Source: Escherichia coli
Lineage (GTDB): Bacteria; Pseudomonadota; Gammaproteobacteria; Enterobacterales; Enterobacteriaceae
Strand: one strand, 5' to 3'
Assembly: GCF_003334405.1 (NCBI RefSeq)
Contig: NZ_QOWM01000001.1
DNA: 64,000 nucleotides
The position numbers and the translations under genes are program-made. The notes beneath the pieces were generated by a model. That model was not told the DNA's origin. It searched no databases and was given only the letters and a program-made list of their open reading frames with translations. Numbering within the stretch: the first letter of the stretch is position 1; each line of letters opens with the position of its first letter. This document shows, piece after piece, positions 44,861 to 46,213 of the stretch.

Positions 44861-46213
44861 TTAACGAAACACCACTTCCGCCCAGCGTGCCAGCCCGGCG
44901 GTGACGGAGCCAAAGTCATCGCCGCCTGCAATCGGAATTCCCGGCAACTGTTCTGCCAGCGCTTTTTTAATCAGCGGCGAACGGGCGCTACCGCCGGTCA
45001 GGTAGATAACGTCCGGTTTTTCCTGGGCGTTATCCAGGGCCAGTTGCACCTGTTCCAGAATCCGCGCCAGTGGCTGGCTGAGGGCGCTTTCCAGCCCTTG
45101 CTGGCTAATCAGCGTAGCCAGTTCATCGCTGATAAACGGCAGTGAGGCGCGGGTTTCCGCTACGCTTGAAAGAGCAATTTTGCACTCTTCTGCGCTACGC
45201 ACCAGGCGATAGCTTAAACGCTGACGCCAGACTTTCTGTAGCAGGGCCACTTTTTCCGGTTCGCGGGCATCGCGTACCAGATCGTTAAGCAGACGACCGT
45301 TGGCACTACTGTAGAAATCACTCTGCGCAGGTACGTCGTTGATGGCAACCGCATTCCACCACGGCAGAATCGGCAGGGCGATGCCTTTTTCGGTTTCGCC
45401 ACCCATGCCCAGTAACGGCATCAGGTTTTTAAACGCCAGTGCGATGTCCAGATCGTTACCGCCAATACGGCAACCACTGTGACCCAGCAGGCTGGCTTCA
45501 CGATCGAGACGCGAACGCCACTGCGGCCCCATCAGCAGCAATGAACAGTCAGTCGTACCACCGCCGATATCCACCACCAGCACCCGTTTTTCTTCCTGCA
45601 AGGTGGCTTCGTAATCCAGCCCAGCCGCGACCGGCTCGTACTGGAATACCACGTCCCTGAATCCGGCACGCTTCGCCGCGCGTTCCAGAATCCCTTGCGC
45701 CTGGGCGTTTGCTTCATCGCCGCCCAGCCCCTGGAAGTTGATCGGGCGACCAATCACCGCCTGAGTAATCGCTTCTGGCAGCTGCGCCTGCGCCTGCTGG
45801 CGAATGTGCAACATCATTGCGCAGACCAGATCCTCAAACAGCGCTACCTGCTGCGGTTTTAAGCCGCTGGCACCGAGGAACGATTTTGGTGATTTCACAA
45901 ACCACACTTCTTCTGGATCATCAATGTACTGTGCCAGTGAGGAAAGACCGAACTGCACGCTTTTCGCCGTAACATCGATATCTTCTTCGCGGTTATAACG
46001 AATCGCCCGACGTAACAGCGCCTGCGTTTCATCGTCGTCTGCCGGAACATCATGATGGCGGTACAGCCATTCACTTACTGCTTCACGCGTTGGCGCGCAA
46101 AGCATTGAAGGCAGCAGCGTGCTGTCGTTTTCCATTTTCAGTAATTGCGGTTTACCGTCACGCATGACCGCCACTGAACAGTTTGCTGTACCGTAATCAA
46201 AACCAATAAACAC
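44861..46213 (-). CDS. yegD: Hsp70/actin-superfamily ATPase (DnaK-like, no obvious substrate-binding domain)
   Basis: 450 aa; IGFDYGTANCSVAV phosphate-1 and VDIGGGTTDCSLL phosphate-2 motifs. Confidence 0.9.
   Translation of the reverse strand: MFIGFDYGTANCSVAVMRDGKPQLLKMENDSTLLPSMLCAPTREAVSEWLYRHHDVPADDDETQALLRRAIRYNREEDIDVTAKSVQFGLSSLAQYIDDPEEVWFVKSPKSFLGASGLKPQQVALFEDLVCAMMLHIRQQAQAQLPEAITQAVIGRPINFQGLGGDEANAQAQGILERAAKRAGFRDVVFQYEPVAAGLDYEATLQEEKRVLVVDIGGGTTDCSLLLMGPQWRSRLDREASLLGHSGCRIGGNDLDIALAFKNLMPLLGMGGETEKGIALPILPWWNAVAINDVPAQSDFYSSANGRLLNDLVRDAREPEKVALLQKVWRQRLSYRLVRSAEECKIALSSVAETRASLPFISDELATLISQQGLESALSQPLARILEQVQLALDNAQEKPDVIYLTGGSARSPLIKKALAEQLPGIPIAGGDDFGSVTAGLARWAEVVFR

Follow-up and report, generated by a model that had tools for sequence, protein, structure and literature searches.

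Background

Members of the Hsp70 (ASKHA) superfamily are built around a nucleotide-binding domain (NBD). This is an ATPase fold of two lobes that resembles actin and bears the phosphate-1, phosphate-2 and adenosine motifs. The canonical chaperones DnaK, HscA and HscC continue from this domain into a hydrophobic interdomain linker, a beta-sandwich substrate-binding domain (SBD) and a helical lid, and the genetics and structure of the DnaK-DnaJ pair place the contacts with the J-domain at R167, N170 and T173 of DnaK. Hsp110/Sse1 and Ssz1, which respectively act as nucleotide-exchange factors and in the ribosome-associated complex, provide precedents for Hsp70-like NBDs that serve as nucleotide-controlled regulators. 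A quite different bacterial system, the TerY-P triad, combines a TerY-like vWA protein, a PP2C phosphatase and a Ser/Thr kinase, and has been associated with defence (PMC11090510). Here we examine a locus of Escherichia coli in which the two kinds of component lie side by side: the Hsp70-like gene yegD, and the yegL-pphC-yegI cassette, which has the triad's architecture. The locus was studied in a 64,000-nt stretch of contig NZ_QOWM01000001.1 (assembly GCF_003334405.1), referred to below as the window. We conclude, with a probability that we put at about 0.85, that yegD encodes a vertically inherited, stand-alone Hsp70-type NBD working as an ATP switch, and that its adjacency to the kinase gene yegI is a by-product of cassette insertion.

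Neither side of this junction is new. The yegD gene is annotated and near-universal in E. coli, and its product has earlier been assigned to the Hsp70/actin family; biochemical characterisations of the kinase and the phosphatase next door exist as well. In the literature yegD figures among the Hsp70s included in panels for genetic interactions and for chaperone overexpression, where nothing specific to it was recorded; the PphC preprint names it merely as a neighbouring 'actin family protein' (10.1101/303594), and the YegI kinase preprint (10.1101/819920) was absent from the literature matches for yegD. A first-pass annotation, made from the sequence alone, had proposed that YegD is a truncated Hsp70-like ATPase that might be a dedicated partner of the adjacent signalling genes rather than a general chaperone.

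YegD is a nucleotide-binding domain without a substrate-binding domain

The yegD coding sequence occupies positions 44861-46213 on the minus strand, running from a GTG start to a TAA stop (44861-44863) and specifying 450 aa. A GGGGA lies about 9 nt 5' of the GTG, and this start is supported by the phosphate-1 motif, which with its family-invariant D6 and G8 falls in the first 12 residues. The first-pass annotation had already named this reading frame yegD, and its identification as the E. coli gene is secure: the region 40500-47300 shows 100% identity to strain Res13-Lact-ER02-39 of E. coli and was matched in 5424 of the 5426 complete E. coli genomes, its genes are named yegL, pphC, yegJ, yegI, yegD ('molecular chaperone') and alkA in RefSeq, and YegD itself shares 99% identity with the common E. 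coli protein cluster. Relative to the K-12 MG1655 record, the window is in reverse orientation.

Profile searches place YegD firmly in one curated family. The NCBIfam equivalog NF008673 (PRK11678, 450 positions) matches residues 1-450 along its entire length, positions 1-450, at 810.3 bits against a cut-off of 331; YegD is the type member of this family, which we take to be the 'YegD-like Hsp70 NBD' group of the Conserved Domain Database (CDD). Scores against the NCBIfam DnaK and HscA models fall far under their cut-offs. The Pfam HSP70 model matches residues 3-228 and 330-422, corresponding to model positions 2-349 of 599, that is, to the NBD part only. A sequence search of the Protein Data Bank (PDB) returned DnaK NBDs as the top matches (E ~1e-16), and profile-profile alignment with hhalign, for which the DnaK sequence had been checked against the PDB DnaK chains, superimposed YegD 1-445 on DnaK 1-379 with a probability of 99.9 (E 3.9e-32), ending before the VLLL linker. 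The C-terminus of YegD thus falls at about DnaK residue 384, and neither the linker nor the beta-sandwich SBD nor the lid of DnaK-type chaperones follows.

Structure prediction agrees. An AlphaFold2 model built on an alignment of 58 homologues (30-90% identity) has a predicted local distance difference test score (pLDDT) of 94.9 and a predicted template-modelling score (pTM) of 0.91, and consists of a single NBD without a beta-sandwich; a run on the single sequence reached a pLDDT of 38 and was unusable. Foldseek searches with the model gave DnaK/Hsp70 NBDs as top hits, with template-modelling scores of ~0.7 for Hsp70 NBDs, normalised to the target. The best structural matches were Hsp110/Sse1 and Ssz1, a ranking that may be due just to the closed, ATP-like conformation of the model. 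These proteins keep an SBD-like region that YegD lacks, and we cite them as precedents without claiming YegD as a member of their groups. The first-pass observation that 450 residues leave no room for an SBD and lid is upheld by Pfam, hhalign and AlphaFold2 alike, and the structural description of YegD stands, since a complete DnaK-like SBD was not seen.

The catalytic apparatus of the Hsp70s is present in full. Both phosphate-binding motifs noted in the first-pass annotation were recovered: phosphate-1, IGFDYGTANC (aa 3-12; 46178-46207, minus strand), in which D6 and G8 are invariant in the 58 members and D6 aligns with DnaK D8, and phosphate-2, LVVDIGGGTTD (aa 212-222; 45548-45580, minus), which corresponds to DnaK D194-D201 including T199, and in which D215, G217-G219, T220 and D222 are invariant in the family. 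The catalytic DnaK residues K70 and E171 correspond to K110 (codon 45884-45886, minus) and E193 (codon 45635-45637, minus), each invariant in 58/58 family members, and the adenosine motif IYLTGGSARSP (aa 403-413; 44975-45007, minus) has the invariant G407 and G408 aligned with DnaK G341 and G342. The whole set D8/K70/E171/D194/G196-T199/D201 of DnaK is therefore represented by D6/K110/E193/D215/G217-T220/D222 of YegD, without exception in the 58 sequences, and the equivalent of the DnaK proline P143 is also kept (P157), as in the canonical Hsp70s. A PADLOC match of YegD to PDC-M61B covers only the 27-residue phosphate-2 motif at 22.5 bits and was rejected as meaningless.

These observations also bear on the idea that YegD is a polymerising cytoskeletal protein of the actin/MreB kind rather than an Hsp70-type switch, for which there are weak MreB_Mbl matches in Pfam and NCBIfam and the 'actin family protein' label of some annotations. 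We regard it as very unlikely: the closest likeness in sequence and structure is not to MreB, ParM or actin, as the YegD-family profile aligns to DnaK with the E-value given above, the Hsp70-specific equivalent of K70 is invariant, and the gene neighbourhoods show no link to division, shape or segregation genes.

YegD departs from the canonical Hsp70s in the surfaces through which they meet their co-chaperones. The J-domain contact residues R167, N170 and T173 of DnaK are replaced by V189, Y192 and V195, positions that across the family hold E/V/R/A, Y/F/L and V/I/L respectively, and DnaK R151 is likewise not kept. Alignment to DnaK with hhalign and MAFFT further delineates two inserts. One, of about 40 aa (~aa 46-85; 45959-46078, minus), forms a helical hairpin that remodels subdomain IB; its length varies widely among YegD homologues, and the segment equivalent to DnaK 75-112 is missing. 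The other, of about 45-55 aa (~aa 269-325; 45239-45409, minus), enlarges subdomain IIB and appears as extra helices in the AlphaFold2 model. Longer homologues (480-750 aa) were searched for fusions and showed an expanded IB insert only, with no recognisable extra domain. A single 753-aa metagenomic protein (P0246) joins a NeuB domain to a YegD-like region; there is no second example, and it may be a gene-call artefact.

Taken as a molecular machine, YegD would bind and hydrolyse ATP through the canonical set D6, K110, E193, D215, G217-T220 and D222, and the accompanying lobe movements would amount to an autonomous conformational switch, independent of J-proteins. Because it has no linker, SBD or J-domain contact residues, it would be unable to run the DnaK/DnaJ/GrpE client cycle, and the remodelling of subdomains IB and IIB makes GrpE-type nucleotide exchange doubtful as well. 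A role as a classical general chaperone is unlikely on these grounds. Contacts with partners or clients would probably be made by the two inserts at the mouth of the nucleotide cleft, the lineage-variable one in IB and the conserved one in IIB.

An old, vertically inherited gene

The distribution of YegD indicates that it is an old gene passed on by vertical descent, because sequence identity tracks phylogeny: 96% in E. albertii, 90-91% in Citrobacter, 85-86% in Enterobacter, 72% in Yersinia, 49-56% in Vibrio and 46-49% in Shewanella. The family comprises 344 clusters at 50% identity (E<=1e-30). A scan of one genome per species yielded 78 loci, to which five others were added, and the resulting 83 loci range from E. 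albertii to Vibrio, Shewanella, Pseudomonas, and Beta- and Alphaproteobacteria.

We then clustered the 1384 open reading frames (ORFs) of these loci. The only recurrent neighbours are genes of Enterobacterales synteny (mdtA, udk, dgcE, mdtBC, dcd, alkA and asmA), and no conserved operon partner of YegD emerged outside Enterobacterales among the 83 loci; elsewhere the upstream neighbours are as unrelated as transketolase, Mfd, GlpD, a histidine kinase, the ExeM nuclease and a TonB receptor. The most widely conserved neighbour is dgcE (yegE), present at 16 loci; in Acerihabitans, [Erwinia] mediterraneensis, Yersinia and Edwardsiella it immediately precedes yegD in the same orientation, 34-88 bp away. 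A functional association of YegD with the diguanylate cyclase DgcE, its oldest neighbour, could be read from this arrangement. The adjacency is, however, restricted to Enterobacterales and is broken in Enterobacteriaceae by alkA, which lies between the two on the opposite strand (the corresponding stretch here is window 46347-50560), while Vibrio, Shewanella, Pseudoalteromonas and others have YegD beside unrelated genes. The pattern fits plain inherited gene order, and we give the association very little credence. In MG1655, dgcE and alkA have themselves been catalogued as a convergent excludon.

The kinase cassette is an insertion beside yegD

The yegI gene (42903-44849, plus strand) ends with a TGA at 44847-44849. 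It does converge on yegD, as the first-pass annotation had it; the distance between the two stops is 11 nt (44850-44860), not the 12 bp given there. This short spacer is also the right-hand junction of an inserted cassette. In Salmonella enterica and Citrobacter freundii, whose YegD proteins are 89-90% identical to that of the window, the gene order is yegE-alkA-yegD-ibs-mdtA with no yegL, yegK, yegJ or yegI, and Enterobacter and the divergent E. coli MEI4BO-21 have the same triad-free layout. In blastn comparisons with triad-free genomes homology spans alkA and yegD, breaks off precisely at 44861 and is regained, at about 40598, within the ibs repeats; positions 40599-44860 are thus a 4.26-kb indel, which carries yegL (40762-41421, plus), pphC/yegK (41418-42179, plus), yegJ (42220-42705, minus) and yegI, and is not part of the yegD unit. 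In an alignment of the junction, the TAA of yegD is the last point at which E. coli and E. albertii agree with the triad-free genomes. The G+C content of the indel is 0.37-0.54, against 0.56-0.59 for yegD. Direct repeats or att-like sites bounding 40599-44860 were looked for, and none was convincing.

E. albertii provides the complementary case. Its yegD is intact (96%), and a clean deletion is flanked by a 5' stub of yegL (equivalent to window 40778-40830) and a 3' stub of yegI comprising the last ~22 codons (window 44780-44849), both within locus L006 at 11369-11495. These stubs imply that the cassette is older than the split of E. coli and E. albertii and was lost later in the latter. The arrangement in E. 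marmotae matches that of E. coli except that yegJ is missing, and at least 80% of 40500-47300 is present in 5378 of the 5426 complete E. coli genomes, making yegD and the triad both near-universal in the species. We envisage that a mobile TerY-P-like yegL-pphC-yegI cassette entered the variable spacer between yegD and ibs/mdtA in an ancestor of Escherichia, ending at the yegD stop, and that yegJ would have joined it later, in roughly one E. coli strain in three.

The left end of the indel adjoins an array of three tandem ibs/Sib-type type I toxin-antitoxin units, ~328 bp apart, between mdtA and yegL (window 39700-40620); the third copy is divergent, being 70-91% identical to the other two depending on the segment. 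In other genomes the yegD-mdtA spacer holds different cargo: an IS481-family transposase in Enterobacter cloacae (L009, 11448-12602), an HTH/antitoxin-like pair in Enterobacter sp. Ag1 (L026, 8321-8963), and in Superficieibacter 5.6 kb of unannotatable ORFs together with a yegJ homologue (L013, 11350-17000). The spacer acts like a site of repeated integration. In a few genomes labelled E. coli the entire locus is strongly divergent: in MEI4BO-21 (NZ_CM149565.1, 1768514-1787943) YegD, AlkA and MdtA are 85%, 68% and 83% identical and dgcE is split into pseudogenes, which suggests that foreign DNA replaced the region or that the lineage was misassigned.

YegD and the triad keep separate company

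If yegD were an accessory of the triad, the two should be found together across genomes. Searches with YegI or PphC by tblastn (E<=1e-5) in ~10 kb around the YegD loci matched none of the 83, and hidden Markov models (HMMs) built from four triad cassettes recovered nothing at E<0.01 among the 1384 flanking ORFs, so that no YegD locus has a relative of YegI, PphC or YegL within that distance. The spread of YegI is flat and patchy, in contrast to YegD, whose identity follows phylogeny: its nearest relatives outside Escherichia, 57-62% identical, come from Klebsiella aerogenes, K. spallanzanii, the betaproteobacteria Piscinibacter and Chromobacterium, and metagenomes. We also ran the reverse test on five such loci (K. 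aerogenes, Piscinibacter, Chromobacterium and two metagenome contigs; L084-L088). In all five the kinase is the last gene of a co-directional, abutting vWA-PP2C-kinase cassette, and at none of them does an HSP70-family gene lie within 8-9 kb. Four of these foreign triads sit amid defence or mobile genes, the surroundings including a BrxR/JetB/SLFN-like helicase set, AbiH with a KAP NTPase and Tn7-like TniQB, type I restriction-modification with Mrr, and an IS481-type transposase; the fifth sits amid ordinary metabolic genes.

The yegL-pphC-yegI cassette looks like a mobile TerY-P-like module, yet one that is nearly core in E. coli. PADLOC gave only a weak TerY match for YegL (E 0.0078), a weak match for YegI, and no TerY-P match for YegI or PphC. 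No Hsp70-like gene accompanies the cassette at the five loci outside Escherichia, and yegD is not one of its components.

This evidence bears directly on the proposal that YegD is a dedicated ATPase partner, client or regulator of the YegI kinase, PphC phosphatase and YegL vWA module. The proposal draws on the immediate adjacency across 11 nt, on the near-universality of yegD and triad in E. coli and their identical layout in E. marmotae, and on the induction of yegD upon yegJ overexpression discussed below. The adjacency, however, is confined to Escherichia and arose from an insertion whose end is the yegD stop; in E. albertii yegD persisted although the triad was deleted; the searches in both directions came back empty (0/83 and 0/5); the genes are convergent, with neither a shared orientation nor co-transcription; and yegI and pphC are absent from the supplementary RNA-seq tables that list yegD as induced. 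The first-pass annotation had named a lack of co-conservation outside Enterobacteriaceae as the result that would tell against a partnership; in the flanks surveyed co-location is confined to a single genus, which tells against it more strongly. We consider the dedicated-partner proposal extremely unlikely.

Transcript overlap, stress regulation and yegJ

The only coupling of yegD with yegI that is supported is at the RNA level, through overlapping convergent transcription. ExcludonFinder lists yegD-yegI among 165 convergent MG1655 excludons, pairs with overlapping transcription and mutual interference, and finds it in at least 50% of 58 MG1655 transcriptomes (PMC12288877). A scan of the 11-nt gap for an intrinsic terminator found none, and the nearest weak terminator-like hairpins lie inside the opposite genes; the convergent transcripts overlap because the insertion left no room for a terminator. 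An interaction between the two RNAs is plausible; it would stem from the insertion and would not point to a common function. A stronger form of this account, in which coupling is confined to RNA and each gene damps the other via transcriptional interference or RNase III cleavage, is compatible with the insertion origin that we favour and draws on the same spacer, hairpins and excludon listing. We hold it as a tentative possibility, since the overlap may amount to no more than read-through noise that is tolerated, the triad is hardly expressed under the conditions tested (PMC13232886), which leaves reciprocal regulation a proposal, and the arrangement is an accident of insertion absent from other genera.

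Other regulation of yegD can be considered apart from the triad. The small RNA RyhB activates its translation, not its transcription (PMC4666370), and this control is independent of the triad; its place of action is presumed to be the 5' untranslated region (UTR), which together with the yegD promoter lies in the 133-bp divergent yegD/alkA intergenic region (46214-46346). A list of RpoS-dependent genes of O157:H7 gives yegD with a value of -14 (PMC2907692), and an overexpression screen for H2O2 resistance includes it (PMC8228696).

Several points weigh against our reading of yegD. The co-occurrence tests reach ~10 kb of flanking sequence, not whole genomes; the within-species E. coli data leave room for a secondarily evolved interaction between yegD and the triad; no functional or biochemical study of YegD was found in the literature searched; and overexpression of yegJ raises yegD mRNA by log2 3.0 (~8-fold), hinting at a local regulatory link (PMC13232886).

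The last point raises the question of whether YegD is functionally tied to YegJ, a DUF2314 protein that binds RNase E and arrests growth, rather than to the kinase. The yegJ gene (G+C ~0.37-0.43) interrupts the pphC-yegI operon. The log2 rise in yegD of 3.0 was obtained without IPTG, and the value with IPTG was 1.8 (PMC13232886). Superficieibacter electus, which lacks the triad, carries a yegJ of 74% identity 199 bp downstream of yegD and in the same orientation (L013, 11549-12010), and the window likewise has yegJ downstream of yegD and co-oriented with it. Against this, yegJ is present in just 1933 of the 5426 E. coli genomes and absent from E. marmotae, no Hsp70-like gene lies beside three distant YegJ homologues (55-62% identity), and a toxic protein could induce yegD simply by stressing the cell. 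A functional tie of this kind appears unlikely to us. About as improbable is a more elaborate scheme, in which the family consists of widespread SBD-less, J-protein-independent Hsp70-type ATPases that bind partners via the IB and IIB inserts, and in Escherichia has been secondarily wired to the cassette, through YegJ induction and yegI antisense transcription, as a stress buffer or antagonist. The RyhB activation and the H2O2 screen would accord just as well with a function in iron or oxidative stress, such as Hsp110-like modulation of DnaK or HscA.

Implications

Gene adjacency at yegD/yegI is no evidence of partnership, and what novelty remains attaches to the function of YegD-family proteins and to the adjacent cassette separately, and not to any connection of the two. 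Judged by itself, the yegL-pphC-yegI cassette is a candidate defence or signalling system, given the defence-island-like settings of its counterparts in other bacteria. YegD retains its interest as the representative of a family that is broadly conserved in Gammaproteobacteria and keeps its catalytic residues intact without the J-domain contact residues of DnaK.

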